The translations under genes and the position numbers were made by a program. Under the pieces are notes generated by a model, which was not told the origin of the DNA, searched no databases, and saw only the letters and a program-made list of their open reading frames with translations. DNA of 57,327 nucleotides. It comes from a virus. Lineage: Duplodnaviria; Caudoviricetes. The first letter of the stretch is position 1; each line of letters starts with the position of its first letter. The stretch covers positions 1 to 57,327 of the IMG/VR virus record IMGVR_UViG_3300027612_000001; one strand, given 5' to 3'. Positions 6,258 to 39,002 of the stretch are shown in pieces.

Positions 6258-6649
6258 TACCATCTAGCCTTTCTTGGTCTGTTGTCGACGTGGACGAACG
6301 TCTTGTAGCTCGTCCCTATCCCCATGAAACCAACCTCTTCGGCCGCCTCTACAATTGTCTGCTTTGATACGAACAACGGTATATCGATGGCAGTGCTTGG
6401 GTCGTCCTTAGTACAGCGATGCTGAGACCTTGGAGCGCCGCCGACGCGAGCATTGTGAAGCGGACAGCGACAAGCTGAGTTAGGCGAGAACGGCTTGCCT
6501 ATCAGCTTGCGCATTTCCTGAAGTTTCCACAGAGCGTCTTCTTCCAAATGGAAGAGTGGTTCTTCGTCTTGGGAGAAAGAGCAAGAGCCGTCACAGCCCT
6601 TGCATCTCAGCTCGGCAAACGTGAAGTTCGGGGTTGCCCACTTGCTCAT
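6257..6649 (-). CDS. Peptidase M15A endolysin
   Basis: NFTFAELRC, SACRCPLHN..VGGAPRSQH, AIDI, GIG, FVHVD. Confidence 0.9.
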   Translation of the reverse strand: MSKWATPNFTFAELRCKGCDGSCSFSQDEEPLFHLEEDALWKLQEMRKLIGKPFSPNSACRCPLHNARVGGAPRSQHRCTKDDPSTAIDIPLFVSKQTIVEAAEEVGFMGIGTSYKTFVHVDNRPRKARW

Positions 6650-15600: not shown

Positions 15601-18048
15601 AGCAGGAGGTTGTGGAGAGGAAACTTGCGCCGCAACAGCGTCGTGCATTTCCTGACCGTGACGGAGCTTGATTTGTTCAAGAAGAATCGGAAGCTCAACT
15701 GTATCCAAGTCCTGAATCGTTTTTGCAAACACATCCATTGCTTGCGCATTGACGTTGAGCTCATGTTGTTCCAGCGCTTTCTCGCGGAAGTCAGCAGGTA
15801 CGCGCTCTTCGATCAGAATACGGATGATGTCTGAATGCCCTTGAGATGGCATGCCGACTTCGTCGTACACCTCGATCAAGAACTCGTTTGCAATTCCAGC
15901 CTCGAGACGCTCCTTGAAGTACTCTTGACGCTTCGCCTTGTTCTTCGGATTACGCGCATCGCCAATCTGATTTAGCTCGCGCTGAACAATCTTGGGGTCG
16001 TACCCGTAGTCAGCCAAGTACTTAATTACGTCGTTCTGTGAGCGAACCTCAGTCGCGATCTGATCAATTACCTGACTAGGCGTCATGTCTGCCTCAGCCT
16101 CAAGGACTGGCTCAGATACATCTGGCTCTGGAGAAATCTCTGCCTCGACGTTCTGCTCGCGAAGGTTATCGATTGCTACGGCAGTTTGCCTGTCGTACTT
16201 GTTTCGCTCGCTCGCAGTAAGAACTTCTTGGTTAGCCGCCTCAGTACGGGCAACCTCAACCTCTTTCTCACCGAACTCAACAAGCTCTTCTAGATCTGCA
16301 CGCTTCTTCTGTAATCCTTCGTCTGCTTGCAACTGCTCAGCAGTATTGCGTGCGTCAAAGTCAGCAAGTCTCTGGGTTCTTGCGGCAAGCTCCTCGTCTG
16401 CACGTTGTACGCGAAGCTTAGATCTGGACAACGCTTGCTCTTGCTTCTCTACATTTGCGCGAGCTTCTTTAATTTCTGGATATGCTTCTTCTGCTTGCGC
16501 CAACTCTTCGCGAGCTTGACGCTCTGCGCTAAGGTCTGTGGAGTCGCCAACAACTGTAGCTTGTTCACCAAGTGATTCGTCAGCGCCAGACAAATTGCGA
16601 GAGGTTGGCTTGACCGCTCCTGCGGCAAGCTCTGTGTTCGCCTCTTCGATTGTGTTTCCGGGGCTCATTCTTCCGCCTGGGCGGTTCGCTGTTCCGCCCG
16701 GAAGTTGTCCCATCGCCGCCCCTGAGTTTGGAGCTAAAGAAGCTACATTGTTTTTACCCTCCATTAGAGTTAGTGGCGCATCTACGTCTTCAGGCTTTGG
16801 AAGACCTAGTAGCTCGGAAACTGTGTCAGCTTCTCGGCTCAGCGTTTCAACTTCAGCACCCTTATTGCCGTTAGTCTTCGAGCTTACGACGTTACGGATC
16901 TTGGCAGACATGCTGTTAGTCGCAGTCTCAAGACGTGCGGCATTTGCGTTCAAAGTTGTAGCTTCCGGCAACTTGCCTTCTGCCGACATCTTTTCTGCAT
17001 CAGCACGCAGGCGGTCGATCGTTGCGCGGGCAGAGCGGACCAACTGCACATGGCGTTGCATCTCAATGCCTTCACTGACAGGAGCTTTTGCGTCTACGCC
17101 TGTGATGTCTTCGGGTGCTACCTCTTGGTCTTCGAGCTCGGCCAACCGGCGAGCTTCGACTTCGCCGCCCATGCGATCGTATTCGCCAAGAACAACTGCC
17201 TCGCTGTCGAGATCAAGTTCTGGTACGTCTGAGTCAGCGATATCGATTGCCGCTCGTGAAGCCTCTTCTGATGCTTCTTTAGCGCCGCGAATAGCGCCTG
17301 ATTTTGCGCCCATTCCTGCCGCACCGATGATGCCGGGAGCGGATAGAGTCCCTTGAAGCAAGCCACCTGTAGCGGCGGCGACGCCGGTTTGAAGTAGGCT
17401 TGTCTCGTCGCGCAAGCCAAGCTCTACGTCTCGATTTTGCGTCATGGTGTCGGCTACAGCTTCAACACCAGCACCAATGCCAGCCTCGTAAGCCAAGCCT
17501 TTCTTTACGCCTGCCTTGAAACCGCCGCTGGCGGCTTTCTGAGATCCCTGCTTTGCAAGTAATGCGGCGGAGCGTGATGCGACTGTTGCCGCCTTAGCAC
17601 CGGGAATAAGGTTGGTTACGTCAAGCGCTCCGGCAACTAGGTTTTGCCCAAGGCCAGCAAGTCCGCGTCCGCCTTCTTCATAGAAGTTTGGAAGCGCGTC
17701 ATACACAGCTTGTAGACGAGCAAGACGCACGTTTTGTGCATCACTGTCTGTTTGTGAATTGTAGAGATCTTTGGCGATCGAGACTGTATTGACATTACTC
17801 CATGTACGGTCTTCCATGAAGTGATCGACGAATTCATCAGTGGTGGAGAAGGTTATGCCGTCACGCTGACGATAGTATTCCATGCCGTCGTTGATGAACT
17901 GGGCGTTACTTAGTAAGTCTTGCGCTGACTTTTTACTTAGGTTCGAGGCATAGCCGAGGGAGTTACCTTCGCTTGCGCCTTTTAATTGGTTGAGGTTTTG
18001 CAGATTATCATCTAACCCGCCGATAAGATCGTCGATATCTCGCGCCAT
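6646..18048 (-). CDS. Giant (3800 aa) internal virion/DNA-ejection polyvalent protein
   Basis: Last gene of the virion operon before lysis; zincin motif AHELGH...EFFA; gp16-like C-terminus (FQLKSFP); GGAG RBS. Confidence 0.8.
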   Translation of the reverse strand: MARDIDDLIGGLDDNLQNLNQLKGASEGNSLGYASNLSKKSAQDLLSNAQFINDGMEYYRQRDGITFSTTDEFVDHFMEDRTWSNVNTVSIAKDLYNSQTDSDAQNVRLARLQAVYDALPNFYEEGGRGLAGLGQNLVAGALDVTNLIPGAKAATVASRSAALLAKQGSQKAASGGFKAGVKKGLAYEAGIGAGVEAVADTMTQNRDVELGLRDETSLLQTGVAAATGGLLQGTLSAPGIIGAAGMGAKSGAIRGAKEASEEASRAAIDIADSDVPELDLDSEAVVLGEYDRMGGEVEARRLAELEDQEVAPEDITGVDAKAPVSEGIEMQRHVQLVRSARATIDRLRADAEKMSAEGKLPEATTLNANAARLETATNSMSAKIRNVVSSKTNGNKGAEVETLSREADTVSELLGLPKPEDVDAPLTLMEGKNNVASLAPNSGAAMGQLPGGTANRPGGRMSPGNTIEEANTELAAGAVKPTSRNLSGADESLGEQATVVGDSTDLSAERQAREELAQAEEAYPEIKEARANVEKQEQALSRSKLRVQRADEELAARTQRLADFDARNTAEQLQADEGLQKKRADLEELVEFGEKEVEVARTEAANQEVLTASERNKYDRQTAVAIDNLREQNVEAEISPEPDVSEPVLEAEADMTPSQVIDQIATEVRSQNDVIKYLADYGYDPKIVQRELNQIGDARNPKNKAKRQEYFKERLEAGIANEFLIEVYDEVGMPSQGHSDIIRILIEERVPADFREKALEQHELNVNAQAMDVFAKTIQDLDTVELPILLEQIKLRHGQEMHDAVAAQVSSPQPPARQGAQNDKLTRFAESLLKRLPEDQAGRIYDMARTEKFRLNDQNFPPHVVNTVVDRIVSKEAEEVLSRIEGNVAGRDFSVSEDYGDNAPHMLRAIHKGDGTITVFGKEIQGGSVSGKLQSIVGRDRSRLFRAAKVDNGDGTKTWLTSIETSLREMEDAYIAAGTNRMVKDSEKEAILIELYDSRVEAGEKVDPRQDPRQLGQAIKDANSRIRNYLKIEDDKSYVDYLFIDQESDGTWTITGPQDLSEGQLDEAQASVREANKIQAREDNEQAKFKDLVDRSNKLLRDPVKRADYPDYEDFIKEIKSRLTTQRTELVSSTDLEARARDIENRRNNRLLEYVNEVRASIIQLKNAESKHAAGDITTARRDELQQAQYDRTRKVFDQLYKELRTIKDPDLKRQSQALIAKLKNDMLVNESLVEHAKKAPPKPKTKTENVIGEEVTPTERDQAVQKANEVVRNTQTKIDQDALNDIIERRNNGEISSEEFAQEVRDLAQATEKLKKDAPVAPKPDGVEYQPVVSVKDGYEVDVPNAIQMRPGRNGSQDIMFGDEVLGRLRTNEDGSFTYQRISGAAGDPLEDVYQFAQLPAMWNGIHGMHRGVFKAAGDKGDFAPSKGSPEDEYFTLDPDNTNTYKNMDESSPVVEEMNTSEAVATDSPVNRGPSKPVEDLEKFSDDFAPGQGFVTAVQITDPSNKFRGSVRVFATKPTRKYPNEKGQTLGQVLGAAKKGDYVVGKVPAGTKSVDLQDAFIPMDPTQPIYHRGESSPRVTDRVSDDALQRVQARKSLEGPQLVTLQKLEKQGLTDQDKNSSFAKFAMMRFMSQGMKMENAYDVQQALTKMHYELNWNDIDSLESYQGVVNALAEGHDILARYAPDGIKLPRTTAHRSLQTLRKTIESYGSEDRRIMEEMLNRVTFGREASMPLFGTVPEGTVDRGQYQPAFIQDGSYRGKPARVGGRNSNKVLLNSDPTNAKTSPPAETMAHELGHWLYENALSPKDKMEFWRDVVGKYVTSEGVDMARLQVKLPGIAPNELANPQEFFANQFSMWMTAKGAVGDESYWAKISKYAKAIFDRIMKPGEKQITIDPDLAKLFERALPEREVDPITGAREGIVGRFDKLPSIVETIKKAGRVDDADGRLLGKIAEDLIGLDDLAARIDTAVAYSTGNSIDRTAFIEAIDKIRRDVYGMYGGKAQAKTHRAIKGKDNTGHNRRYYLENTEDGMRAMNKIKMAQSRLFEFDKNLRQLDDKGIDKLRGIMSSQVDEINAEAELLGMETMRVDASSFGRADIDQASYDHLAMLVSDLRVAVDQVTRESVDKFNKKMPFATGGARFRINSEGDARVSKPSPLSLMHAARNKKNKARYEAMKAEVDLIDQLTEIALARNPNSVFFDESAAGDPDIVVSPKDMTDAQISNEAKSTPDEVKRMVDLQNEAKDRANTSVNEVPVESEMSETMQRLLDQVVDQESGEQIMSLALSNTTGADQKRIINAIRGKMDSLGLIPSKPITDSVTSKAIKKEVEDQGTIEAPNGVDGGVSPALKAQLFSVTSGNKRQEYIMRQVVQRALRLTDRPEEQQFISQLDLQVISGMAPEDLADEAVEQAMAMPATTDQIGEIRGVLRKIAAGLDGSDTGMRRSAFGAVGRIVYAISPDETKRMFRKFLERMAETEDLLEEEVADFAVEMISNGTITNLAESNLMQFGSPVQIRQLHDEFAQRVAYVIRGATNLSDEAIPASVSQYGDVFAHRTNSKKVTASARTANWPHVSKDLAPEFIEEELSSLTPAREQAVRNFAGAGPLENLDDYVYVARSDGSAAGASGDTTFAVQSDKGYGVHLQRPKALSKEALTPEEKLASIMQGVSSDSPNYTEINEIASDAVRFGEAVRNARINGLSADSIRVFAQMEASSYRALSQLGVAVDPPVVTPVVARTNNLMNFGEEIFSIDSGRPDQIDGLFLQLVDEMKLSPKTVADLKAELAVTSDGVPVGFTGSQLFEALTSANSSVVRNGDHLNKESAVEALNSALKKAGFDGAVHEDVTIVFSGNSVHHLADGWKKSDARSASKPVSQHSSVGTSIADYMEFTGEPLSRDSAPMVVSQAVAAGAPDEMVRPLRRMVEGRALGVNDIDRVTKSSTFINAFSENSIALRNMGAKWLANIIKPLDGVGIFERHDVDLNRIVHPISAQLRALPDSPGALKRWMQRNSGLIPQATQMEGGIGYTLTSRRARQPESHDRIISALRLGKEAVMNLSPQERRIALDIANAFDKELSRMREAGIQVGDVRQNGSDFYVPQMWDVEAIRENPEGFRKILAQYFVREQSTPGFDGVAKDRKAIDKMSEDIVRRFLDSDGLVDESLMHNAVTNPFYRRMIRLTPDMPEAVELQQFMENDLEGIITKYFDKTVRKRALSDKFGVDGHGFAAYADTANGGAEAAAKILASDKTRMVDTGLRSEEQTFIKPDAYIPALREDPLLIEQIVNEAFDVLKDGGDSSLTKMRAKNIILNAYPPQQRDNKQLLARIDGIINGAADFPDAPPTRQANKNMTEMMRVLNKRPKDGTTGQEWQHTASRSLRTFNSVSLLGATTLTSLPDLVLPIVRSGNFRAFIKSLTSYMGDPEYRRFAKSIGTGIENLVHDRMVQMGGEGNQRFSNSFFNFTGLTTWTNTMREISSMVGYEAFKMEVNRAMRLRAEGNVDSNAYKYAVNFLSRYGLTGENADYDFLALSAKSIDSLKDSDEIAGNALRYGMLRFTNEAVFTPNPNDVPLWAQGPIGQVIFQLKSFPLMMSRMAFSRGGVMDNFNKWVRREGGSPMPALYLATAGAGMGASANYIKDIIQSRGEDDEGNPTSGSRERRITELMKFTESMGLVEKDGPYDEALGHYFEGLLAMGGLGLFAELLYNTAQQADNGMYGTMRIMSSLAGPSFGAGVDAVQTGQGLSDFVFREEGEPTGTAREAFRKIATRVPVLGSSRAFREAAAGIGGEPTSASRGSGASFSSQGSGFSNFGDL

Positions 18049-18113
18049 TATGCTCTCCAGTTACGCATTGGTGACTGGATTCAGCGTATAAAGACGCGAG
18101 TTTTATGTCGTCC

Positions 18114-20507
18114 TTAGCGAGCGCGGAAGACGTTGTCTTGGAGGTTCGTCAAGCTCACGCCAAATAACTGCTGACCCATAATGTATGGATCAATGTTTAG
18201 AAGCTCTCCGTATCTTCTTGCAATGAAGATCATCTGAAGCATTTCTGAATCTGCAAGAGTATCTGAGCTGAAGAAGTCAGGATCTTCAACGTAACGCGGA
18301 ATTCCGTCGGAAGTAGCTTGGATCTCTCCGCGAAGGAGCCTGTTGGCCTCGTCTCGGATACGTCTGCCGTCGTTGTCCTTGAGTTGCGCTATGTGAAGAT
18401 TGCCGTCATTTGTTGTAAAGGTAGATTGCAGAAGATCTCCTTCAAGCCCTGTCTCTGGATCGATGGTGTAGATACCAGCAGGGATTCCTAACTCTCGTGC
18501 TTGGTCTGGGAGTATTCTATAGAACTCTGTATCAACGGTTTCACCATCTTCATTAGGTGCTTGCGCTGTAACGGACTGGGCATAAGAAGGTCTGCCTTGT
18601 GGTTTGATACCACTGATCATGTCAAGCAGACGGCCTGCGGCGGCGTTAGCGAAGTTGCCAGCCTGATCCATACCGTCAGAGTTGAATCTAACGCCGAACC
18701 GATTGATCTTATCAAGAACAGATGGACCGAACTGGTTAGCTGATTCAAAGAATGGCTGTAGTAGCGCATCGACCTCTGATTGCGGTGTGTCGATTGGTAG
18801 GTTCTGAACCGCTGTGACAACAGCTTGGAACTTAGCTTTGACACTATCTTCGTACTCAGATATGTAGACTTTAACATCTTTGCCCGGTCTTGGACCGAGC
18901 TTCCTCTGATGACGAAGATCTCGCTCAACCTGATCTCTCGCGTTTGCGCGAGTAGACAAATTGAACTGACTTACGACAGTTGCGTATATCTCGTTTCTAT
19001 TCTCTACGCTATCTGAGACGCCTCGAGAGGCCGCATCTATCGCAAGAACAACTTCTCTAGTTCGACCATCAAGATAGAACTGTGAATGTATCTGTTTTGC
19101 GACAGAGGTGGCTAACTCGTTATTCTTTAGGTCATCAAGTAAGTTGCCAAAAGCGTCTTCTTGCGCCTGTATCCTTTTCTCGACGATCGTGATTGCATCA
19201 GTCTGGACTTGTTTGTTTTCATCGTTCCAGATCTTACCAACCTCAACGCTTGCTTCAGCCTGAATACCCTTGATGAGTTGCTTGTACGCAGGCTCGTTGC
19301 CTGTGAACTTGCCGAGTCGATCTGGACGAAGCTCATTGATCCGGTCAAGGATCGCCTGCTCGCGGTTGGGTACATCTGGATCAGTGAGTGCGCGAACAAG
19401 AATAGCGTCGTCTGCGACTTCGTCTTTGAACTGAGTTTCTAGCTCTCTGTTGACAACCCGAGTATCTACCGTGACGTATTGGCGTCTCATGCGTGCAGTG
19501 AACGCATCGATGTTTGCCGCAACTTCATCATTGGTCATGCCTGAGTTACGCAGTGCGCTTTCTGCTAATGCACGAACCTCTGCTTCTTCAAGATCAGAGA
19601 AGCGAGTTCCGTCAGGTAGCCCTGTCTTGAACAGCTCTTCTGCTTGAATCATCTCATCTCGATCCGCTCCACGCTCTGCGGCGGCCAATCGAGATTCTGC
19701 TAACGGCATAGCCTTGACAAGAAGAGCATCTACTTCTGCTTCAGTAAGCTCTGTAAGACCCGCAAGGCGCGTCTTTATGAAGTTACGAAGACCGATCTTA
19801 TCTTCTTCATAAAAGATAATCTCATCTAAAGGTATCTCGCCTATCAACCCGAGCGCTTTTGTTTCTTCTTTCGTCTTAAATGTAGCGGCCCTGTTATTGA
19901 TGATTGACTCAAGTGCTACAGAAACCTCTTTTGGTTGCTCTCCGATGATCGCCTTGGCTTCCTTGATGTCACGAATTCCGCTAAGACGAGGAAGAAGTTT
20001 CTGTACTTTGGTGTCGACAGCATCACGCTTAATCGAGCCGAGGCTGTCGCCAACCAAACCAAAAGCTCTTTCTGCTTGCTCTTTGTCGCCGCCGTACATA
20101 CCAAGAAGGCCAGCTCTGAATTTACCTACGTCTTCCTCGCTATCGATGTCCATGTTGACGATGTCATCAGAGAATGTCTTGACGATGTTTTCGCGAAGGG
20201 ATTGTGTTTGGTCAGCTATCTCAGCAACCTGCTTGGTGCGTGACTCAAATGCATTTTGGTTCTGGCGAAGCGCTTGCTCACGAATGACCGTAGCTGAGGG
20301 AAGGCGTTGTGCGTCAAAGAAGCTACCGCCAACGATGCTCGACTTGAGTTCTTCAAGCTCTGCGACTGATACGTTTCGACCGTCAGTTGTTGCTTGTTCG
20401 ATGTACTTACGATACTGCTCCGCATTTTCGCGACGGCGCTTACGGATCGTTTCCCGAGTATTATCTCGTTGTTCTAAGTAGTCTCCGGTAATGTCAAAGC
20501 CAAGCAT
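18114..20507 (-). CDS. Internal virion/ejection protein (helical, 797 aa)
   Basis: Position and size as in the podovirus ejection-protein trio. Confidence 0.6.
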   Translation of the reverse strand: MLGFDITGDYLEQRDNTRETIRKRRRENAEQYRKYIEQATTDGRNVSVAELEELKSSIVGGSFFDAQRLPSATVIREQALRQNQNAFESRTKQVAEIADQTQSLRENIVKTFSDDIVNMDIDSEEDVGKFRAGLLGMYGGDKEQAERAFGLVGDSLGSIKRDAVDTKVQKLLPRLSGIRDIKEAKAIIGEQPKEVSVALESIINNRAATFKTKEETKALGLIGEIPLDEIIFYEEDKIGLRNFIKTRLAGLTELTEAEVDALLVKAMPLAESRLAAAERGADRDEMIQAEELFKTGLPDGTRFSDLEEAEVRALAESALRNSGMTNDEVAANIDAFTARMRRQYVTVDTRVVNRELETQFKDEVADDAILVRALTDPDVPNREQAILDRINELRPDRLGKFTGNEPAYKQLIKGIQAEASVEVGKIWNDENKQVQTDAITIVEKRIQAQEDAFGNLLDDLKNNELATSVAKQIHSQFYLDGRTREVVLAIDAASRGVSDSVENRNEIYATVVSQFNLSTRANARDQVERDLRHQRKLGPRPGKDVKVYISEYEDSVKAKFQAVVTAVQNLPIDTPQSEVDALLQPFFESANQFGPSVLDKINRFGVRFNSDGMDQAGNFANAAAGRLLDMISGIKPQGRPSYAQSVTAQAPNEDGETVDTEFYRILPDQARELGIPAGIYTIDPETGLEGDLLQSTFTTNDGNLHIAQLKDNDGRRIRDEANRLLRGEIQATSDGIPRYVEDPDFFSSDTLADSEMLQMIFIARRYGELLNIDPYIMGQQLFGVSLTNLQDNVFRAR

Positions 20508-20509
20508 TT

Positions 20510-21361
20510 TTAACCCGTCCTACGAGGGTAGGTGGAGTCATAGAATGCGGCTTCTTCACTTGGTGACATGGAGCCAGTGACGGTAGAAGACCTGTTTGCA
20601 TTTTTCTTGGAGCTGAAGCTGAAGTTTTCTTGGAGCTTTCCTATCGTATCTGCTAGGTATTTTTGCGAGCTTCCGGCGTAATCAGAAGCATTGTTAGTGA
20701 TTGCCCGCTGATCGGTAAGCAAGTTGTTGTAACTTCCGCCGCTTGAGTTCTGGTTGTAGATATCCCTATCGAAATCTGCCGCAGTGCCATACACAGTACC
20801 GACCTCGTCCAGTGTTGCATCTCGTCCGTAGTTCAAGGTGTCTGCGTAGTTACGCGACTGGTTTATCGCCGCGTCAAATGCGGCTTGCTGTAGGGCAGGA
20901 ATTTCGGTCGCCGCCTTTCTCGCAATCTCTGCTTGCTGGTCAGTGAACTGTGTGGAGTTGTCCATGCCACGCGAGATGGCGTCTGCGAACCCTTGTGAGG
21001 CGACTGTACCGACAGTTTTATTGTATTCACCCATGAACCTATTCATGTTGCTAACATAGTTTTGGTTTACGTCTGCTGGGCTTACTCCGACTCGAGCGCC
21101 TAGTTTTGCGTAAGCTTCCTTTAGGGCTCCGTCAAGCTCAGCGCCTCGCTGTAATGCTCTGTCACGCAAAGCTCTCATATCGGCTTCTCGCTGGGCGATT
21201 CGCCCCTGCTCTTGCTGAACTAGATAGCTCTGAAGAGCAAGCTCATTAGCACGAGCCTGTGCCGCATCATCAGCTTGGTTAAACCCCTGATAAATATCTA
21301 TGAGAGTTCCGACTTTCGCTGGACCCTCTCCGAAAACTTCGAGCATGTCGCCGTAAGCCAT
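20510..21361 (-). CDS. Internal virion/ejection protein (A/Q-rich coiled coil)
   Basis: Composition and synteny. Confidence 0.55.
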   Translation of the reverse strand: MAYGDMLEVFGEGPAKVGTLIDIYQGFNQADDAAQARANELALQSYLVQQEQGRIAQREADMRALRDRALQRGAELDGALKEAYAKLGARVGVSPADVNQNYVSNMNRFMGEYNKTVGTVASQGFADAISRGMDNSTQFTDQQAEIARKAATEIPALQQAAFDAAINQSRNYADTLNYGRDATLDEVGTVYGTAADFDRDIYNQNSSGGSYNNLLTDQRAITNNASDYAGSSQKYLADTIGKLQENFSFSSKKNANRSSTVTGSMSPSEEAAFYDSTYPRRTG

Positions 21362-21364
21362 TCG

Positions 21365-22156
21365 TTACCCCATCATTTTCCGGCCAAAGCCTGATCGCAG
21401 GTTCATTAAAGATCTTGAAATTGGTCCGCGAGCCATACGCAGTGCTTCACGAGAGCCCGGAACGAACGCCATCTGCTCGTCGTCGATTGGCAAGTTGTAC
21501 GCTTGGATGTCGATAATCTCTTGACCCGGAGAAGGCTCTACATAGTTAGGGTCAGTCCCTACGTCTGACTGAGCAACCTCTGTCATTACACCATCAACAG
21601 GGGCATCCATTGACTGAGGGTCTTCTGGAGATACGATCTGCGCTTCGCCACCGATAAGGGCACGCTGTCCAAATCCTTGTTGGCCGACACCGGGCTCGCC
21701 GCCACCGACCATAGGAGCATTTTCTTGAAGCTCGACTGTTGAGTCGGAGCCGACTACTTCAGGAGCTTCTTCGCGACGTTGTTCTAAGAACTTCCGCTTG
21801 TCAGTTCCAGCCCGACGGAAAGGGGACTGTCCAAACGCATCATCTGGGCGGCCACCAACAACAGCTTCCATTACGTCTTGAGACCCGACCTCGCCCATAT
21901 CTGGAACGAACTTCCCGTCCATCTCCTGCTTCTGTCGCGCAAATGCTTCTTTGCCTGCAAGCGTTGAAGACGGAGCCTGAGAGACTTGCTGTTCTGCCCG
22001 AGCCTGCTGGATATCTCGCTGTTGAGTTGGGGCTGATCCCTGAGCGCGTGATGACTGCTGGCGCTGTGTACCGAGGCTCTGCCGTGATGCCCCTTGCGCC
22101 GCCATATTAGCCACTCGCTGACGCTGAGGGTTTGATGATGAAGCGTTGCCGCCCAT
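21365..22156 (-). CDS. Low-complexity putative virion protein (MGGNAS... N-terminus)
   Basis: AGGAG RBS; Q/S-rich; shares the C-terminal motif. Confidence 0.6.
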   Translation of the reverse strand: MGGNASSSNPQRQRVANMAAQGASRQSLGTQRQQSSRAQGSAPTQQRDIQQARAEQQVSQAPSSTLAGKEAFARQKQEMDGKFVPDMGEVGSQDVMEAVVGGRPDDAFGQSPFRRAGTDKRKFLEQRREEAPEVVGSDSTVELQENAPMVGGGEPGVGQQGFGQRALIGGEAQIVSPEDPQSMDAPVDGVMTEVAQSDVGTDPNYVEPSPGQEIIDIQAYNLPIDDEQMAFVPGSREALRMARGPISRSLMNLRSGFGRKMMG

Positions 22157-22166
22157 AACTAATCTC

Positions 22167-23966
22167 CTAAACTATGATGCGGTCGCCGTAACCACCTGAT
22201 CTACGGCGTAATGATCCGCCACGTCTGCTCCGATATTGCTGTACCGGAGTTGCTACTGAATAGGTTGTCTTTCCGTAGTCTCTCTGTCGTCCTCTGGTCA
22301 GGTAGGTGATATCAGCAGAGGGCTGTGCGGAAAATACTGGGTTGATGTTCTGTCCTGCTTGGGTGTTACCAGAAAGATCAACTGGAGCGCCTCGCTGTCT
22401 GTACGTTTGCTCGATGATCTGTTGCTGTTGATCCTGCGGAGATTCTTGATCGGGATCATCTATAGGAGTGATAACCGGGCTCTGGTCTACGTCGTCGACA
22501 ACTTCTTGGTTTGGAGGTTGCATCGACCTGTCTGCATTGTTGCTGTCTCTTGGTCCATCAGGGTTCATTACGTCTTCGACAGACAGAGATAGGCTTCTGT
22601 TGTCAGGGCCGTACTGATTGCGACCCTCAAACGTCATGTCCATTCCATCTAAGCCGAGTGACTGGCCGAAAGACTTGGACAAATTCTCCGCCCCTACGCC
22701 AGCCGCTACGCCGCTGACCACAGCCCCGCCGACTGCCGCGTCGACATTTTGGGTGCTCTCGTAGATGCCTTTTGCCGCCGACATTGCCGCTTGATCGCCA
22801 AGCATTGATCCGATCTGGTTTGATGCGAGACCTAGTGGACTGATCTGGGCAGTGGTGATTACATTGCTGTAACCGGGAACTGCTGATCCGTACTGGTTCA
22901 TCTTGTTGAAGTCCGCAACCATTCCGAAGGGGGTCATGGTGTTCATGACGAAGTCACCGGCCCGCATGCCTACCGTAGACATGCCGATGTTGCCTCTTGG
23001 GTCCAGCTCCATGTTCGTGCCGAAAGAGCCAGTTGCCCTGTTGTATCCAGAGGCCAGTGCATTAAAGTCTGATCTAGGAACTGATGAGCCAAGCAAAGCG
23101 CCGTTCGGGGTCACTTGATAGCCAAGCTCCGCTAATCCGTATGGGTCTTCAAATGTAGAGAAGTTGCTGAAAGCACCTTCTTTTGCGAGCGCCATACCCA
23201 GCTCAGTCTGGAATCCTGCAAGCTCATCGGCTGTGTAGTTTCCGTCTTCAATACCGTCCTCAGTCAATCCTTTTGCTTTGTTGTACAGACTTGTAGGGAC
23301 TGTTGGCGGGAGGCGCGTGCCCATGTAGTCGGCACGGTAAGGAGTACCCTGAGCTGTCACCTTGTTCATGAAGGTTTGAGCGGCCTCCCTTGACGCGACT
23401 TCAAATGCTTCCTGTCGCCTTGCGTTCTCCAGAGCCGCTTCGTAGGAACCACTGCGGACAGGGTTCCCGCTTGTTGACTTGAGGTTCGTGCCTTTGTTTA
23501 GGTTTGTATAGCCTTGCTGACGAAGCAGGTCATTGACTCGGTCCGATTCGCCACTTTCTACAACATTTGAGAAACTGTTGATTGCATTTTGCGTATAGCC
23601 CTTCGATGCAGTGAAGGCGTTGAAGTTGGATGAGCTTGGATTTGATGCCCCTATTGATGAGCGATCTACGCCGGGAGTTCGGTCGATGGAGTTCGGGATT
23701 CCGTCGCCATCGTTGTCGTTTGAGCTACCGCCACGGCCAACACCGCCGTCAGAGCCAGAGGTGACGGATTCCCCGGCGGCGGTCTGCTGGTCCATGTTGT
23801 CAAAGTCAGCAGAGATTGCGTCGAGCTGATCCATCTGATCATCTTGCTTGTCTGCACCGCCAGAATCGCCGCCATCGCCGCCTCCGCCAAAGCAGTAAAC
23901 AGAGCTCTCCATTTTCCAAATGAAGTAGTCAGGTGACGTTTTGTCTGGTTTGTTGAAAAAGTCCAT
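22167..23966 (-). CDS. Putative virion/ejection protein with CFGGGG motif, TSP3-like DxDGDG motif and hydrophobic G/A stretch
   Basis: Start reassigned to MDFFNK (23966), just after the GNAT stop codon. Confidence 0.6.
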   Translation of the reverse strand: MDFFNKPDKTSPDYFIWKMESSVYCFGGGGDGGDSGGADKQDDQMDQLDAISADFDNMDQQTAAGESVTSGSDGGVGRGGSSNDNDGDGIPNSIDRTPGVDRSSIGASNPSSSNFNAFTASKGYTQNAINSFSNVVESGESDRVNDLLRQQGYTNLNKGTNLKSTSGNPVRSGSYEAALENARRQEAFEVASREAAQTFMNKVTAQGTPYRADYMGTRLPPTVPTSLYNKAKGLTEDGIEDGNYTADELAGFQTELGMALAKEGAFSNFSTFEDPYGLAELGYQVTPNGALLGSSVPRSDFNALASGYNRATGSFGTNMELDPRGNIGMSTVGMRAGDFVMNTMTPFGMVADFNKMNQYGSAVPGYSNVITTAQISPLGLASNQIGSMLGDQAAMSAAKGIYESTQNVDAAVGGAVVSGVAAGVGAENLSKSFGQSLGLDGMDMTFEGRNQYGPDNRSLSLSVEDVMNPDGPRDSNNADRSMQPPNQEVVDDVDQSPVITPIDDPDQESPQDQQQQIIEQTYRQRGAPVDLSGNTQAGQNINPVFSAQPSADITYLTRGRQRDYGKTTYSVATPVQQYRSRRGGSLRRRSGGYGDRIIV

Positions 23967-23968
23967 GC

Positions 23969-24421
23969 TCACAATCTCTTCTGAAAGATTCCGCCTTGAG
24001 GCACATACCCAAGAGTTTTGCAGAAGGAGTTCCATCGGTCGTCCACGCCATGAGACGTAGGAGAGAACCACATGATCTTGACCCCCTTACTGCGCGACCA
24101 CTCTTCAAACTTGCGCATAAGACGAATGCCAACTCTCGTGGAGCTTTTGTAGTCAGGGTCAATGAACATCAGTTGTTCGTTCGCGACGAGGTCATCGCTG
24201 TAAATCATTGGTGAAATGTAACCGCTCAGGAATGCAACGATCTTCCCATCCCTGTCGTCAACGAAGTAACACCTGTTTTCCTCTCTAATTGTTCTGATCG
24301 CGTACTGTTGCATCCGCTTGATGTTGATCGGATGGTCGCGAAACATTGGCGAGTCTTTAATGAACTTAACGCCAAGTGAAACGATTTGATCTACGTCTTG
24401 CAGGATTGCTTCGCGAATCAC
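23969..24421 (-). CDS. GNAT-family acetyl/acyltransferase 2
   Basis: IREAILQD, FIDPDYKSSTRVGIRLMRKFEEW, LGY; GTGA overlap with the upstream GNAT. Confidence 0.85.
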   Translation of the reverse strand: MIREAILQDVDQIVSLGVKFIKDSPMFRDHPINIKRMQQYAIRTIREENRCYFVDDRDGKIVAFLSGYISPMIYSDDLVANEQLMFIDPDYKSSTRVGIRLMRKFEEWSRSKGVKIMWFSPTSHGVDDRWNSFCKTLGYVPQGGIFQKRL

Positions 24422-24861
24422 AGCTTGATCCCGTACTGAGGGCCGAGGTACTCGTACCCTAAGTGTTCGACCAGTTTTGAGAAGTCTTGGTCTGGGCATG
24501 CGCTAGGTGCGAAGTACATCCTGTCGCATTTGTTTTCTTCTGCCCATTCACGGAATCTTTTTAGGAATTGAATTGCGTGTCTGCCGCTTCGCTCGCTAGG
24601 CATGACGTACATGAGCTCTTGTGATGCGATTAGTGAGTGGCTAAACAGAGCGTCGGTGATTCTTGCGATGAAGAATCCTGTTATCTTTTCGTCTCTTTCA
24701 GAAACGAGAAACAGGGAGTCTGGATCCCATAAGACAGCTTCCGCATACTGTCGCATCTTATTGATGTCGAGAGGCATGTCTGAATAGACACTATCGATTA
24801 CGAAGTGACGCCCTATCTCGACGCATTCATCTAAATCGAATACGTCAGCTAGCCGTATCAT
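24418..24861 (-). CDS. GNAT-family acetyl/acyltransferase 1
   Basis: MIRLADVFD, YVMPSERSGRHAIQFLKRFREWA, LGY. Confidence 0.85.
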   Translation of the reverse strand: MIRLADVFDLDECVEIGRHFVIDSVYSDMPLDINKMRQYAEAVLWDPDSLFLVSERDEKITGFFIARITDALFSHSLIASQELMYVMPSERSGRHAIQFLKRFREWAEENKCDRMYFAPSACPDQDFSKLVEHLGYEYLGPQYGIKL

Positions 24862-25811
24862 CCGATAACAATTCTTGGGCTATTGCCAAAGCCTTGGCGA
24901 CGGCCACGGGTTCTCAATGCTCGAGAGAATGACGCCGCGTCGTTTTCGTCTACATTGACGTAGCTATATTGACCGGTGTCCTTGTCCTTAACCTTTCTTT
25001 TGTATTGAACGCCCGAAGCCATTTGAGGAAGTGTCGGAGCCATTGGAGCCACAGGGAGATCTTGTGGCAAGGTCGCACTTACATTTGGTTGGTCGTTGTC
25101 ATCAATGCCCGGAAGAGAGACAGGAGGGGTTGTCATTGGAGGAAGATTTGGATCTTCTGGCTTAGGAGCCTCTGGCATTGGAGTAGGCTCTGGTCGCTTG
25201 TTGGTAAATTCGTATGCGGCCTTGCCTGCGACCGAAGCGCCGATCAAGCCTGCATTCGAGAAACTTGAGCCAGCCGCTATTGCCGCATCTTTGACGCTCG
25301 AAGACTGCACTTTTGTAGTAGGCGAAGAGCTCGAAAAGACATCTCCGATGGCGTCGCCAGTTGCATAGCCTAATCCCGCCGCCGCTCCTGATGCGAGGGC
25401 TTGCGTGTTTGAAGATCCGCCCAGCTTAGCGGCCCCTGCGGTGAGCGCACCTGTGGCTAATGACTGACCTGTACGAGTGTTGGCGACATAGTCGAGTGCT
25501 TTCGTACCGTATTCAGCCGCTGTCTCGACCCCTTTTTGTGCATACTTCTTGATGTCTTCCCATGTCAAGTAGAACTCTTGAGCGCCAGTTGCTGGGTTGT
25601 ACTGGCCTGAAGGAGAGCCTACGACAAAGCGGTTAGGGTCTACGCCCATCTGAGACATTGTCATCTTCGCCGCCGCGACCAAGGCAGGGTTCGCCTGCTG
25701 TACTGCAAGCGGGATAACCATTTCCCCGGTCTGCGTGTAGGCGAGCGTGTCATCGCCGTTCTGCATTCCGTAGAGCTCGAGAATGTCTGCCTTGTTTGGT
25801 ACGTTGATCAT
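24858..25811 (-). CDS. Putative virion protein with N-terminal GDDTLAY..GE...NPATGAQEF domain
   Basis: Motif recalled from marine podovirus internal proteins; G/A-rich hydrophobic centre, Pro-rich linker. Confidence 0.6.
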   Translation of the reverse strand: MINVPNKADILELYGMQNGDDTLAYTQTGEMVIPLAVQQANPALVAAAKMTMSQMGVDPNRFVVGSPSGQYNPATGAQEFYLTWEDIKKYAQKGVETAAEYGTKALDYVANTRTGQSLATGALTAGAAKLGGSSNTQALASGAAAGLGYATGDAIGDVFSSSSPTTKVQSSSVKDAAIAAGSSFSNAGLIGASVAGKAAYEFTNKRPEPTPMPEAPKPEDPNLPPMTTPPVSLPGIDDNDQPNVSATLPQDLPVAPMAPTLPQMASGVQYKRKVKDKDTGQYSYVNVDENDAASFSRALRTRGRRQGFGNSPRIVIG

Positions 25812-30667: not shown

Positions 30668-31849
30668 TTAAGAGACAGCGCCCCAGTTCTTGATGCGGTG
30701 GTGTACCTTAGACTGAGTCATTTCCAGACCGCACTCACACATGTACATGTGCTTGACACCGTCGAAGTCTGGAGTCTGGATGTCGCGTACCAACTGAACG
30801 TCGCGGCCCTGCATGTAGCGGTACTTAACTTCGTTCATGTCGAGGATGACCATTTCCTTGTCCATGCCCGGAACCTGACGGAACATTGGGTGCATGTATA
30901 CAAGCAAGTCACCTGCGTAAGTTGTGTAGCGGCTCAACGATACGCCATAAGCGTTATCGATCTGAGTTGGTTGCCAACGGTTCTTACCGATTTCCATGAG
31001 GTTCGAGATAACTCGAGCACCACAGAAAGCAACTTTTTCTGGTGAGCCATACGCGAAGATGTCTTCGATAAGAAGACGGTCAAACTCTTTCTCAGTGATT
31101 GTGTTTGCAGTGTCAAAACCTGACGCCGCGTCAGACACGTTAGTGATCTGAGTAGTCAATCCACCTGTGAAACGAGTTGGCTGTGCTGTGTTGCCGTTCT
31201 TCTCGTGACGAACACCGAAGAACATTGCACGCTCAATGTCAGCCATGTGTAGCTTGAGAGCCTTAGTCAACTGCTCCTGCTCCTTATCACCAGTACGGAG
31301 ATAAGTGTTCTGGAGTGTTCCGCTCACCTGCACCGCAGTCTTGAAGATCTGGGTGAAGTTGAAGTCGGTTGTTGGGTCGAAGCTAATAGCTGTAGGTGAG
31401 TTACCACCTTCTGAGTCAGCAAAACCAGCAATGATCAAGTCGTCGTTGTCGCCGATCGTGTAGCCAGTGCCACCGATGTTACGCTCAACAGTCAACGTGT
31501 TTGTGCCAGTGTTTGCATCCGCAGATGCACGCATGATTTCGCCAGTCGCTACGTTCTGAAGAACAGTACCCGCAACAACGAATGCTTCGTCGTTTGAGTT
31601 GTCTACAACGATAGTGCCTGTAGAAGTATCAGCAACAGCGCCGTTTACCTTCAGCTTACGATCTGGAAGCTCATCACGGAAGTGGTTGAACTTTGGATCG
31701 TCTGTAGCTTCAGAGCCAGCCATTGAAAGAAGTGCCTGTAATGGTGCAGTACCATTAGGCTCCAAGAGAGTGAATAACTCTCGGTAGTTGGTGGGACGGA
31801 AATCCGTAGTGAACTGCCCTGTCCCACGCAAACCAGTAATTGCGGTCAT
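30668..31849 (-). CDS. Major capsid protein (DUF5309/SU10-like)
   Basis: TAPLQALLS, NFTQIFKTAVQVSGT, DIERAMFFG, TGGL, ECGLE; strong RBS. Confidence 0.9.
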   Translation of the reverse strand: MTAITGLRGTGQFTTDFRPTNYRELFTLLEPNGTAPLQALLSMAGSEATDDPKFNHFRDELPDRKLKVNGAVADTSTGTIVVDNSNDEAFVVAGTVLQNVATGEIMRASADANTGTNTLTVERNIGGTGYTIGDNDDLIIAGFADSEGGNSPTAISFDPTTDFNFTQIFKTAVQVSGTLQNTYLRTGDKEQEQLTKALKLHMADIERAMFFGVRHEKNGNTAQPTRFTGGLTTQITNVSDAASGFDTANTITEKEFDRLLIEDIFAYGSPEKVAFCGARVISNLMEIGKNRWQPTQIDNAYGVSLSRYTTYAGDLLVYMHPMFRQVPGMDKEMVILDMNEVKYRYMQGRDVQLVRDIQTPDFDGVKHMYMCECGLEMTQSKVHHRIKNWGAVS

Positions 31850-38730: not shown

Positions 38731-39002
38731 TACTCAATTCCATTCCGCTTTAGAAGCTGTATGACTTTTGCTCGGGTCAACGAGTAGTCCTCATTTACCT
38801 CGAACTTCTGTCGAAGGTAGCTAACTTCTGTGACTAGATCGTCCACCTTTGCCAGTATGGAAGTGACGTCTACTGGCTTCTCTTGCTTTGGGGCTGGGAT
38901 CGCGGCAATCGATTCTTGGATCAACGCCTTTACCCAAGCCTTTGTGTTTGGGTTTAGATCAACCAACTTCTCTAGCTGAGACGCTTTAGGTTGTGTTGCC
39001 AT
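38730..39002 (-). CDS. Hypothetical protein
   Basis: TAATG-coupled ORF. Confidence 0.55.
   Translation of the reverse strand: MATQPKASQLEKLVDLNPNTKAWVKALIQESIAAIPAPKQEKPVDVTSILAKVDDLVTEVSYLRQKFEVNEDYSLTRAKVIQLLKRNGIE

Follow-up and report, generated by a model that had tools for sequence, protein, structure and literature searches.

Our sequence comparisons tie the two GNAT genes of a marine phage genome to the N-termini of the two Gly/Ser-rich proteins whose genes follow, most likely by way of N-terminal acylation or recognition. In related genomes the proteins at these two places mostly start with Met-Gly or Met-Cys, which suggests that the enzymes may modify these protein ends. The position of such a GNAT gene is already known in podoviruses under the name IVP-A, whereas we found no paper describing the Gly/Cys start rule after a GNAT gene. 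The window, i.e. the whole stretch of 57,327 nucleotides analysed here, is a complete 57-kb phage genome of the Roseobacter phage CRP-810 type.

The GNAT pair and the other genes given below with their coordinates lie on the minus strand. The GNAT pair is located 3' of the genes for the MCP and two tail-like proteins and 5' of five large genes. Directly 5' of GNAT-A lies the gene of a 317-aa virion-module protein (24858..25811), whose homologs are found 5' of the GNAT in relatives; the protein has a weak match to phrog_382 (E 0.003) and a C-terminus (..RGRRQGFGNSPRIVIG) of the basic-Gly-hydrophobic type, and its stop overlaps the ATG of GNAT-A (ATGA). GNAT-A (24418..24861, 147 aa) overlaps at its own stop with the GTG start of GNAT-B (23969..24421, 150 aa) through GTGA. 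An earlier note on this DNA had called the two genes translationally coupled paralogs, and they are so indeed; an alignment of 148 aa shows 32% identical residues (E 4e-27). After them come gene 1, a 599-aa protein made of an N-terminal extension of 24 codons (M1 to Y24, 23895..23966) and a Gly/Ser/Asp-rich body starting with CFGGGGDGGDSGG (22167..23894), gene 2 (21365..22156, 263 aa, starting MGGNAS) and gene 3 (20510..21361, 283 aa, starting MAYGD). The remainder of the presumed ejection block (6646..20507) encodes a 797-aa protein (18114-20507) and, as the last of the five, a giant protein of 3800 aa (6646-18048), whose N-terminus shares 39% identity across 174 aa with CRP-810 gp36, annotated as 'internal virion protein D' by its depositors. 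The earlier note had placed the pair within an ejection-protein cluster, and the position is borne out; the cluster label is based on synteny, because the genes downstream of the pair gave no match to known ejection-protein profiles in a profile search.

Both proteins match phrog_1249 'acetyltransferase' (E 3.6e-18 for GNAT-A and 8.2e-21 for GNAT-B). GNAT-B scores 30.5 bits against Pfam Acetyltransf_1 and GNAT-A 19.3 bits, slightly under the cut-off of 20.7 bits. The AF2 model of GNAT-B is a confident GNAT fold (pLDDT 92.9) and its nearest solved folds are small acetyltransferases; 4jwp and 4j3g, which are ribosomal-protein N-terminal acetyltransferases, are in the top 15 structural neighbours with TM 0.79-0.81. 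The family consensus at the CoA-pyrophosphate site of GNATs is P-x-H-R-G-G-x-x-A, with the R present in 43 of 58 sequences. This loop is degenerate in the window, reading PSERSGRH-A in GNAT-A and PDYKSSTRVG in GNAT-B, where there is an insertion and K replaces R, and it is degenerate also in the relatives L004 and L026; the general-acid Tyr typical of GNATs is not evident in the window copies. Both copies are fast-evolving. GNAT-A falls within the A clade of the GNAT tree (SH-aLRT 94) on a long branch of 0.96, and GNAT-B is B-like, with a branch of 1.18 and a placement that lacks resolution.

We scanned 98 related loci and found a GNAT in all 66 that extend far enough downstream, the other 32 ending less than 1.8 kb past the upstream gene. 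The presence of the GNAT across these loci is beyond chance. It is always directly 5' of the same gene series, with stops and starts overlapping or 2 nt apart. Among the distinct GNATs of the relatives 29 of 55 are single-copy, and 29 distinct genomes carry one GNAT against 12 with a pair; the pair is a lineage-specific duplication.

The start codons of the downstream genes were assigned by a rule that takes no account of residue 2. Among the non-redundant sets, gene 1 starts with M-G or M-C in 29 of 41 (11 G and 18 C) and gene 2 in 27 of 34 (20 G and 7 C), the other 12 and 7 sets having different starts. Gene 3 does so in 3/33 sets and gene 4 in 0/33, and the gene 3 family begins with M-A in 24/33, which gives a contrast to genes 1 and 2 within the same module. 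The starts of genes 1 and 2 are preceded by AGGAG-type Shine-Dalgarno sites. Residue 2 is under selection, because Gly makes up just 18-23% of residues 3-30 of these proteins and Cys is absent there (0/812 and 0/756 residues for genes 1 and 2); Ala, Asp and Val, each one step away from GGY, are never seen at position 2.

These starts co-vary with the GNAT copy number. All 13 single-GNAT genomes compared are homotypic (7 G/G and 6 C/C), and Cys-then-Gly is found in 8 of 9 two-GNAT genomes, a pattern that the window matches with Cys25 and then Gly. In the relatives the A clade goes with Gly-starting downstream proteins and the B copies with Cys-starting ones. In L010 and L014, which carry an A copy alone, both starts are G; L024 and L025, which fall inside the B clade next to genomes with two GNATs, have lost the A copy, and their gene 1 retains MCFGG while gene 2 is shortened to 140 aa with no M-G start. 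Residues 3-9 of the two putative clients are alike at 3.23 of 7 positions in single-GNAT genomes and at 1.99 in cross-genome controls, with p 0.0008 in a permutation that ignores phylogeny, and they are unlike each other in two-GNAT genomes (0.67/7). Tests that respect phylogeny are underpowered, having just 2-3 independent contrasts, all in the predicted direction, with p 0.25-0.5. The likeness of the two client N-termini could stem from gene conversion between neighbours, not from a common enzyme. The earlier note had connected the GNATs with Gly N-termini: the link holds and is broader than was seen at the time, with homologs retaining G or C at residue 2, and the specificity for Gly does not hold since Cys alternates with it.

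In the window the products of genes 1 and 2 are putative ejection proteins, the 263-aa one being the putative client of GNAT-A and the 599-aa one that of GNAT-B. The 263-aa gene begins with ATG GGC GGC AAC GCT TCA 7 nt past a TAGGAG Shine-Dalgarno site, which confirms its MGGNAS start. The 599-aa gene has its ATG 2 nt downstream of the stop of GNAT-B, at the very place where the relatives begin with M-C, so the extension is real. It ends in ..SSVYCF, followed by GGGG, is missing in nearly all relatives and gave no significant homolog. We consider these 24 codons a possible cleaved leader, for which the 20-aa leader of P22 gp7, cut by the host OpdA, would be a precedent. The N-terminus of the relatives aligns with Cys25, not with the Gly after Phe; hence the leader proposed in the earlier note survives as an extension, while the Gly it was thought to expose gives way to Cys25 and the cleavage after YCF was probably misplaced by two residues.

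We consider it quite possible, if somewhat short of probable, that the GNATs are a version of IVP-A acting on the N-termini of the two following Gly/Ser-rich proteins. IVP-A, a small morphogenesis factor of the acetyltransferase family, has its gene at the front of the operon for the ejection proteins, and the two GNATs would be the IVP-A gene of this phage group. The host methionine aminopeptidase would remove the client Met; the 599-aa protein of the window would instead need to lose its 24-residue extension by cleavage. The acceptor groove of the GNAT would then bind the exposed alpha-amine of Gly or Cys, which would be capped by an acyl group from acyl-CoA, acetyl being our default guess with a longer chain allowed. 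The ancestor would have had a single GNAT, presumably a homodimer, serving both clients; after a duplication in one sub-lineage, B may have specialised on the Cys-type first protein and A on the Gly-type second one, with A and B possibly acting as a heterodimer. The modification might serve procapsid loading or membrane action upon ejection. The genes, the GNAT fold, the synteny, the conserved G/C rule and its co-variation with GNAT copy number are observed; we infer that the GNATs bind the client N-termini and catalyse the transfer, as well as which acyl donor they use and what the clients are modified for.

A heterodimer is indeed predicted for GNAT-A and GNAT-B, with a score of 0.69 against 0.00 for the best of three controls. 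Of 80 solved complexes 58 attain this mark, and so do 2 among 110 mismatched pairs, counts that hold only roughly for our prediction as it used alignments of our own making. The runs have at least 94% of contacts in common, with a partner pLDDT of at least 81. The predicted dimer shows a C-terminal strand exchange as in many solved GNAT homodimers and looks like an ordinary GNAT dimer, and the high score may simply reflect the paralogy of the two chains. The earlier note had proposed a split NMT-like enzyme. Such an enzyme would put a long acyl chain onto the Gly (or Cys) at the N-terminus of ejection proteins that penetrate membranes, in parallel to the myristoylated VP4 of picornaviruses. 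The predicted heterodimer fits such a pair, the clients presumably come into contact with host membranes, and the rank-19 viral fold neighbour, a podovirus protein with TM 0.62, is auto-named 'N-myristoyltransferase, N-terminal domain'. The restriction of residue 2 to Gly and Cys is also compatible with the chemistry of N-acylation, in that NMT acts specifically on Gly and that Cys at an N-terminus readily reacts with thioesters. Yet one GNAT is enough in most relatives, the modelled interface is that of a usual GNAT dimer, bacteria contain little free myristoyl-CoA, and neither NMT nor another long-chain acyltransferase is among the listed PDB fold neighbours (ranks 1-49) or the 11 PDB sequence matches. 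We regard this enzyme as highly improbable; the acylation reading of the note is partly supported, and the split NMT and the myristate are left without support.

The co-variation demands recognition only, not chemistry, and the GNAT fold could thus be a peptide-binding scaffold, i.e. a non-catalytic chaperone that grips Gly- or Cys-led tags, escorts the ejection proteins into the procapsid and then leaves. The degenerate CoA loops of the window copies and of L004 and L026 agree with this. So does the description of IVP-A in the pertinent part of Hardies et al. 2016 (PMC4819975) as non-structural yet needed for morphogenesis, T7 gp13 being likewise needed for morphogenesis and absent from virions. 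[quoted passage not shown] Most family members nevertheless retain the R-G-G..A loop together with an entire GNAT core, and binding alone leaves unexplained that residue 2 admits the chemically odd pair Gly/Cys but neither Ala nor Ser; a chaperone seems unlikely to us. A target elsewhere, for example on the cell wall, some host protein or a small molecule, would make the GNATs auxiliary or 'moron' genes with an incidental operon position. Published work on CRP-810 and on Bcep22-like phages treats GNATs in this way: a GNAT is among the auxiliary genes in the mSphere 2024 paper (PMC11288001), and a 146-aa acetyltransferase among the virion genes of JC1 is called a moron (PMC9144972). The nearest solved relatives, which include aminoglycoside, polyamine and phosphinothricin acetyltransferases, point in the same direction. 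Against it stand the strict conservation of position in 66/66 loci with translational coupling to structural genes and the second, different synteny of the same family beside small virion proteins in Autographiviridae. Such a target would also not predict that the GNAT copy number co-varies with the client N-termini, and we find it decidedly improbable.

An action on client N-termini would have a biochemical parallel in the bacterial enzymes RimI, RimJ and RimL, GNATs of a single domain which cap specific proteins at the alpha-amine once Met has been removed; the fold neighbours 4jwp and 4j3g are of the RimJ type. Their substrates are Ala or Ser N-termini of ribosomal proteins, whereas the clients considered here avoid Ala and Ser and use Gly and Cys, and the sequence identity is 13%. 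Eukaryotic NMT together with picornavirus VP4 offers a conceptual likeness, with a GNAT-fold enzyme acting on the N-terminal Gly of an internal virion protein that, once released, breaches a membrane. NMT has its two GNAT domains in a single chain and is specific for Gly and myristoyl-CoA; in contrast, the window has separate proteins of 147 and 150 aa and the relatives usually just a single one, Cys alternates with Gly, and the listed fold neighbours show no structural proximity to NMT. The best family match is phrog_1249 of Autographiviridae (SP6/K1E-like Vectrevirus, Colwellvirinae and Atuphduovirus; E 1e-18 to 1e-21), for which tblastn gave full-length matches of 25-29% identity in 189 phage records. 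That gene is single-copy (189 places in 189 records) where the window has two, and it precedes the portal gene outside the IVP block, being followed by small gp6.7/gp7.3-like virion proteins starting with MG, MC, MS or MA; the neighbours in Autographiviridae and VpV262 start with S/A as often as with G/C, S/A being common at position 2 anyway. Among the closest known systems is IVP-A as defined by Hardies et al. 2016 (PMC4819975), the class of T7 gp13, P22 gp14 and the VpV262-like acetyltransferase-family genes; T7 gp13 is of the GNAT class according to that paper. Like the window GNATs, these are acetyltransferase-family genes of ~140-160 aa heading an internal-virion/ejection operon after the tail tube genes; profile comparison of the window GNATs with T7 gp13 and P22 gp14 gave no match, and a joint alignment with them is suggestive only. 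The window differs in having the gene duplicated and in the two long Gly/Ser-rich G/C-start proteins that intervene before the helical IVP-like genes. In T7 the ejected proteins gp14 (encoded beside gp13), gp6.7 and gp7.3 begin with MC, MC and MG, and P22 gp7, adjoining gp14, has a Gly-rich start after its cleaved leader. CRP-810 (57.7 kb), the cultured type with the same genome type as the window, has a single-copy GNAT, gp40, described solely as a generic auxiliary GNAT in the portion of PMC11288001 that deals with it. It shares 25% identity with GNAT-B (E 3e-19), is not preceded by a 317-aa gene, and comes after the homolog of a 611-aa protein and before gp39, which starts with MCGGSPPP.

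Our comparison of the window with related phages is best read as pointing to a functional link between the acetyltransferase-like gene or genes of the late operon and the N-terminal peptides of the two proteins whose genes come after. The window has direct terminal repeats and, at 57,327 bp, is complete as a viral record; its late operon, on the minus strand, is of the podovirus type, with the large terminase at 40922-42553, the portal at 39002-40885 and the major capsid protein at 30668-31849 (all minus strand). A 611-aa tail-like gene is followed by a 317-aa gene (24858-25811) and then by the two neighbouring acetyltransferase-like genes, GNAT-A (24418-24861, minus strand), whose ATG overlaps the stop of the 317-aa gene (ATGA), and GNAT-B (23969-24421, minus strand), whose GTG start overlaps the stop of GNAT-A (GTGA). 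The genes after the last GNAT are numbered 1 to 4 in order, gene 1 of the window encoding 599 aa (22167-23966), gene 2 263 aa (21365-22156) and gene 3 283 aa, and the proteins of genes 1 and 2 are called clients, i.e. putative targets of the GNATs. All four features on which the earlier note was built, namely the GNAT pair, its position, the MGGNAS start of gene 2 and the CFGGGG extension of gene 1, are present in the window sequence.

Two adjoining large proteins of the operon (33670-36261 and 36272-38032, minus strand) carry RCC1-like repeats (phrog_7220, phrog_4219 and phrog_16766, labelled 'regulator of chromosome condensation') together with tail-protein matches, and are probably tail fibres or appendages. 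The 647-aa protein (27646-29589, minus strand), encoded between the major capsid protein and the 611-aa tail-like protein, has weak PHROG matches labelled 'amidase' and 'internal virion protein'. It has ~150 additional residues (about 99-248), most relatives' matches joining residue 98 straight to 249, and this longer form is common only to L003, the L004 group and L026/L027 (L-numbers denote the fetched loci and records). On the plus strand a CobS-like AAA ATPase (46244-48232; phrog_249, labelled 'porphyrin biosynthesis') adjoins a CobT-like protein (48344-50368; phrog_1576 / phrog_17276), and such a pair is typical of marine phages. The 599-, 263-, 283-, 317-, 797- and 3800-aa proteins have no significant Pfam or PHROG match, and a direct DNA search of the window region against cultured phages gave no match. 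With the 611-aa protein, Roseobacter phage CRP-810 (57.7 kb) was the sole cultured relative recovered, at 47.6% identity over 82% of the query; a 2024 paper (PMC11288001) presents it as the type of a family of marine phages. The 3800-aa protein (6646-18048, minus strand) contains an HExxH stretch (..MAHELGHWLYE..), and its first ~220 residues match CRP-810 gp36 ('internal virion protein D') with 39% identity over 174 aa, the CRP-810 equivalent being split into gp36 and a protein of more than 2000 aa. The gene-3 family gave a probability below 1% in profile comparison with T7 gp14 and P22 gp7, and no internal virion protein (IVP) family was hit when 19 of its members were scanned against PHROGs.

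GNAT-A and GNAT-B are 32% identical (E 4e-27) and both match phrog_1249, 'acetyltransferase'. Against the Pfam family PF00583 (Acetyltransf_1, cut-off 20.7 bits) GNAT-B passes with 30.5 bits and GNAT-A stays slightly under with 19.3. The AlphaFold2 model of GNAT-B, built with 19 relatives, has a confident GNAT fold (pLDDT 92.9, pTM 0.87), a mixed beta-sheet with its CoA site at beta4-alpha3. A PDB search with this model gave at least 500 matches (E<=0.001), and all the matches listed are GNAT-family proteins or acetyltransferases, one of them deposited as a transcriptional regulator. The nearest solved folds among the matches listed are small single-domain acetyltransferases of 10-20% identity, including 2i79, the aminoglycoside enzyme 5u08, the polyamine enzyme 8a9o and the ribosomal-protein-alanine N-acetyltransferase 4jwp/4j3g (TM 0.79-0.81). 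A profile search of the PDB sequences gave 11 small GNATs (best E 4e-6). N-myristoyltransferase (NMT), to which the earlier note had likened the pair, appears neither among the matches listed (ranks 1-49), nor among these 11 PDB sequence hits, nor in Pfam at E<=0.1. Among predicted viral structures (BFVD) GNAT-B matches phage GNATs best, among them the ones from Roseobacter phage CRP-4 and from VpV262. One BFVD neighbour, A0A8S5MC07 (145 aa, uncultured podovirus; rank 19, TM 0.62), has the automatic name 'Myristoyl-CoA:protein N-myristoyltransferase, N-terminal domain', which is a label and not evidence. A reading as resistance enzymes was rejected, NCBIfam giving only a sub-threshold aminoglycoside acetyltransferase match (19.6 vs 140 bits).

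The pyrophosphate-binding motif of GNATs, Q/R-x-x-G-x-G/A, lies after beta4. Across 58 aligned GNATs the residues R3, D9, V54, W108, G138 and G143 are strongly conserved, and the loop after strand 4 has the family consensus P-x-H-R-G-G-x-x-A (R in 43, the first G in 35 and the second in 28 of the 58), which we take to be close to the CoA-pyrophosphate motif. The same loop is more degenerate in the window copies, with R-S-G-R-H-A in GNAT-A and K-S-S-T-R-V-G, including a one-residue insertion, in GNAT-B.

The predicted complex of GNAT-A and GNAT-B passed with a score of 0.69 (runs 0.71, 0.69 and 0.64), the best of three controls being 0.00. Among solved complexes 58 of 80 score this high, as do 2 of 110 mismatched pairs; these counts hold only roughly here because our own alignments were used. 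At least 94% of the contacts were common to the runs, and the pLDDT of the partners was at least 81. The heterodimer proposed in the earlier note is therefore predicted, but its interface is a C-terminal strand exchange of the ordinary GNAT kind. Since the two proteins are paralogous and many GNAT homodimers have been solved, the model shows only that GNAT-A and GNAT-B can pair as GNATs commonly do, and not that they form a special two-part enzyme.

With the conserved upstream genes as queries we obtained IMG/VR loci in two rounds, of 28 and 80; a single GNAT protein as the query gave no confirmed locus. At least one GNAT follows the 611-aa homolog in 66 of the 98 scanned loci, and the remaining 32 all end less than 1.8 kb past this homolog, i.e. 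no locus reaching the region lacks a GNAT. The 55 distinct GNATs divide into 26 belonging to 13 genomes with a pair, the window among them, and 29 that are the sole GNAT of a genome carrying the same downstream genes. A quick maximum-likelihood tree groups the first copies of the pairs in one clade (SH-aLRT 94), to which L010 and L014 also belong, their single GNATs being the sister of all others there. Two well-supported clades (96 and 99) hold the second copies, and the single GNAT of L024/L025 is nested in one of them beside two-GNAT genomes. Both window GNATs have long branches (0.96 and 1.18), and the tree does not fix the place of GNAT-B. By the tree and the single-copy genomes, the pair is a duplication within the CRP-810 phage family followed by at least one loss, and not an obligate two-part enzyme. 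Against an NMT-like unit of two domains stands that the GNATs are separate genes, of which more than half occur singly. The NMT-like and myristoylation parts of the earlier proposal find no support in these data, although the acyl chain itself could still be a long one.

The two genes after the GNAT tend to start with Met-Gly or Met-Cys. We placed the starts by a rule blind to residue 2, taking the first ATG of the longest frame that starts -30 to +200 nt from the previous stop, in 41 non-redundant sets; these are interrelated, with a few near-duplicates, and the residue-2 counts are therefore not independent events. Residue 2 of gene 1 is Gly in 11, Cys in 18 and another residue in 12 of the 41 sets (F 7, N 2, L, S and R 1 each), and that of gene 2 is Gly in 20, Cys in 7 and another in 7 of 34 sets (S 3, N 2, R and I 1 each). 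The Cys counts, and the Cys of gene 1 in the window itself, speak against the strict N-terminal Gly of an NMT substrate. Gene 3 has Gly in 3, Cys in none and another residue in 30 of 33 sets (A 24, S 5, F 1), and gene 4 has neither Gly nor Cys in any of 33 sets. AGGAG-type ribosome-binding sites lie ahead of the starts. The N-terminal regions of genes 1 and 2 are Gly/Ser-rich, with Gly making up only 18-23% of residues 3-30, and Cys is found in 0 of 812 and 0 of 756 residues at these positions, so that Cys is confined to position 2 of the N-terminal region. At the second codon we see GGY, TGY and, in a few cases, AGY; Ala, Asp and Val, the other one-step neighbours of GGY, were never seen. Ala at residue 2 is the rule in gene 3, yet it is absent from genes 1 and 2. 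The cultured CRP-810 fits, its GNAT gp40 being followed by gp39 starting MCGGSPPP.

The sets that break the rule include L042, L043, L045, L049 and L102, where gene 1 starts MNGKTFSPPRR or MFGSSMRVMGPPPRR and continues with a conserved MLAYIN..EA.LLKA segment, and L089, L092, L096 and L099, where gene 1, of 150 aa, starts MFQNM and gene 2 MSLGGGGGGG. In the main texts of open-access papers and preprints we found no description of the Gly/Cys start rule, of its link to GNAT copy number or of the T7 parallel discussed below, nor any mention of a GNAT of this kind acylating or acetylating the N-termini of phage ejection proteins.

In the window gene 2 starts ATG-GGC-GGC-AAC-GCT-TCA, 7 bases after TAGGAG. 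The ATG of gene 1 lies 2 nt past the GNAT-B stop and is followed by 24 residues and then by Cys-Phe-Gly-Gly-Gly-Gly. In the relatives Met directly precedes this Cys, and the window has the 24-residue extension instead; the codons before the Cys are GTT and TAC, so there is no start codon at that point, and the window ATG at 23966 is placed exactly at the relatives' M-C start. The extension itself has no significant homolog, only the FGGGG part being matched. The second gene of L004/L026 is comparable, with MRDPF.. behind a good ribosome-binding site and ..KMGLFGGG ~30 residues on; a likeness between the two extensions is visible by eye and not significant. There is a precedent in P22 gp7, whose first 20 residues are cut by the host OpdA, as its sequence record and the account in PMC8402733 state, giving a mature start KGGKGG. 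Removal of the window extension would, judged by the relatives, give a new N-terminus at Cys25. The extension taken for a leader in the earlier note is present, but on its removal the relatives predict an exposed Cys25 rather than the Gly after YCF.

The C-termini of the 317-, 599- and 263-aa proteins (..RGRRQGFGNSPRIVIG, ..RRRSGGYGDRIIV and ..RSGFGRKMMG) all consist of a basic stretch, Gly and a short hydrophobic tail. Beyond the window (L032, L033, L037 and L108-L113) the same type is seen in CRP-810 gp39 (..GFSNNLGIIRIGG) and in small gp6.7/gp7.3-like proteins of T7-like phages (..GKRGLVRPVASSLGV and ..ARSSGGGINI). These ends could have in common a motif that docks to the portal or the tail channel.

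The first residues of the clients vary with the number of GNATs when the comparison is limited to genomes with a Gly or Cys start on both genes. Single-GNAT genomes are homotypic in 13 of 13 cases (7 G/G and 6 C/C), and of the two-GNAT genomes 8 of 9 combine Cys on gene 1 with Gly on gene 2, only L020 (C/C) deviating. The window matches the Cys-then-Gly pattern through Cys25 of gene 1 and Gly2 of gene 2. Residues 3-9 of the two genes are also alike in single-GNAT genomes, with 3.23 of 7 identical vs 1.99 in cross-genome pairs of the same class (permutation p 0.0008, uncorrected for descent), and the corresponding value in two-GNAT genomes is 0.67 of 7. Losses point the same way: L024/L025 kept the B-type copy only and have MCFGG on gene 1 and a gene 2 down to 140 aa with no M-G start, and L010 and L014, with the A-type copy only, have an M-G start on both genes. 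Independent contrasts on the tree of the 611-aa protein number only 2-3 per comparison and are all concordant (sign test p 0.25-0.5). The pattern is therefore suggestive, i.e. consistent but not statistically secured given descent.

One residue of the GNATs also differs between the classes. In the loop that joins strand 5 to helix 4, position 125 of GNAT-B (window about 24047-24049) is Gly in 20 of 21 'Cys-class' GNATs, i.e. those paired with Cys-starting clients, vs 3 of 22 'Gly-class' ones, whose clients start with Gly, and most Gly-class GNATs also lack the residue after it. We rejected position 125 as the specificity-determining residue, since its signal is confounded by descent and does not hold in the L044/L057 contrast, and keep it only as a lead; the loop around it could be a specificity loop.

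What the link consists of is a matter of weighing. Our tentative choice, to which we give somewhat less than an even chance, is N-terminal acylation of the clients by the GNATs as putative acyltransferases. Such chemistry is favoured by the CoA loop, which most members keep, and by the odd choice of Gly and Cys alone, Ala and Ser being avoided. The mature N-terminus of P22 gp7 was readable by Edman degradation according to PMC8402733 and hence unblocked, which counts against generalising, as do the degenerate motifs of the window copies. An alternative hypothesis could be that the GNAT is a non-catalytic chaperone which only recognizes the N-terminal peptides and loads the ejection proteins; we consider this less likely. 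Long-chain acylation by a dedicated A-B heterodimer would agree with the predicted complex, and is made improbable by the ordinary interface and the many single-copy genomes. That the GNATs act on some unrelated target is hardly more probable.

The comparative pattern names candidate substrates for the putative acyltransferases, namely the first residues of the two proteins encoded beside the GNAT. If acylation is true, there would be a phage-encoded step of protein N-terminal modification in virion assembly or genome delivery, and a case of a modifying enzyme and its targets co-diversifying after gene duplication. If it is false, the Gly/Cys rule remains as the mark of a conserved signal at the N-termini of ejection proteins and calls for another explanation.

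RTX toxin-activating acyltransferases (HlyC/ApxC) are small GNAT-like proteins that adjoin their membrane-active target and transfer acyl groups from acyl-ACP onto an internal Lys. The likeness to them is in logic only, and none is among the matches listed (ranks 1-49). The podovirus internal virion protein A (IVP-A) class has a comparable arrangement, and its acetyltransferase-like gene (gene 13 of T7, gene 14 of P22) is essential if infectious particles are to form. Many podoviruses have a small non-structural gene of the acetyltransferase family between the genes of tail tube B and internal virion protein B (Hardies et al. 2016, PMC4819975). In the account of this paper the IVP-A homologs of Epsilon15 and P22 are standard ones, internal virion protein A of T7 (gp13) likewise resembles acetyltransferases, and gp13 is needed for morphogenesis and absent from virions (citing Kemp et al. 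2005); its passages on the class do not give a function. The GNAT of CRP-810 was filed among auxiliary genes with generic functions (PMC11288001, in its treatment of such genes), and a 146-aa acetyltransferase among the virion genes of the Bcep22-like (Burkholderia) phage JC1 was called a 'moron' (PMC9144972, in the section concerned). A single GNAT at this position is thus a known feature of the module, and the duplication is a novel form.

The GNATs of the window and the 66 loci share with IVP-A the place of a small gene heading the ejection-protein operon downstream of the tail tube genes, and membership of the acetyltransferase family by Pfam, PHROG and fold. In CRP-810 the GNAT comes directly after the 611-aa homolog, whereas the window has the 317-aa gene in between. 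T7 gp13 and P22 gp14 belong to phrog 308 and 651 and the window GNATs to 1249, and a 19-sequence GNAT profile gave a probability below 1% against either protein in hhalign, a weak test in that only one sequence stood against the profile. When T7 gp13 is aligned jointly with the family (MAFFT), its N-terminal I-R..D falls in register, whereas its R-L-S-G-K-A, which presumably fits the GNAT CoA-loop motif, comes to lie only near the CoA loop; this alignment is not decisive. In T7 (L034, L037) gp13 is in the IVP-A position, and the ejected gp14, gp6.7 and gp7.3 start MCW, MCF and MGK.

The GNAT family occurs once each in 189 cultured phage records (tblastn), all below 60% identity and mostly of Autographiviridae. 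In 8 of 8 opened records the GNAT lies just ahead of the portal gene and is followed by small proteins of the T7 gp6.7/gp7.3 type, which start MG in CrRp3, MC and MC in both Atu_ph03 and NMeng1, MS in Njord, KL01 and VL73, and MA in VEN and D529; the acetyltransferase of VpV262 is likewise followed by a protein starting MS. Beyond the CRP-810 family residue 2 of the neighbour is simply small, a weak signal because Ser and Ala are common at position 2. The stronger point is that the GNAT family repeatedly adjoins small or unstructured virion proteins, in two gene orders. We speculate, as an improbable generalisation, that IVP-A proteins including T7 gp13 might be dedicated N-terminal Gly/Cys acyltransferases capping or lipidating ejected virion proteins, with a specificity that co-evolves with the clients' first residues, one enzyme per N-terminal type and two where Cys- and Gly-type clients coexist. 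If true, this would supply the role of genes which, in the account of Hardies et al. (2016), morphogenesis needs although virions do not contain their products, and bacterial viruses would have their own equivalent of the internal capsid proteins that animal viruses N-myristoylate.
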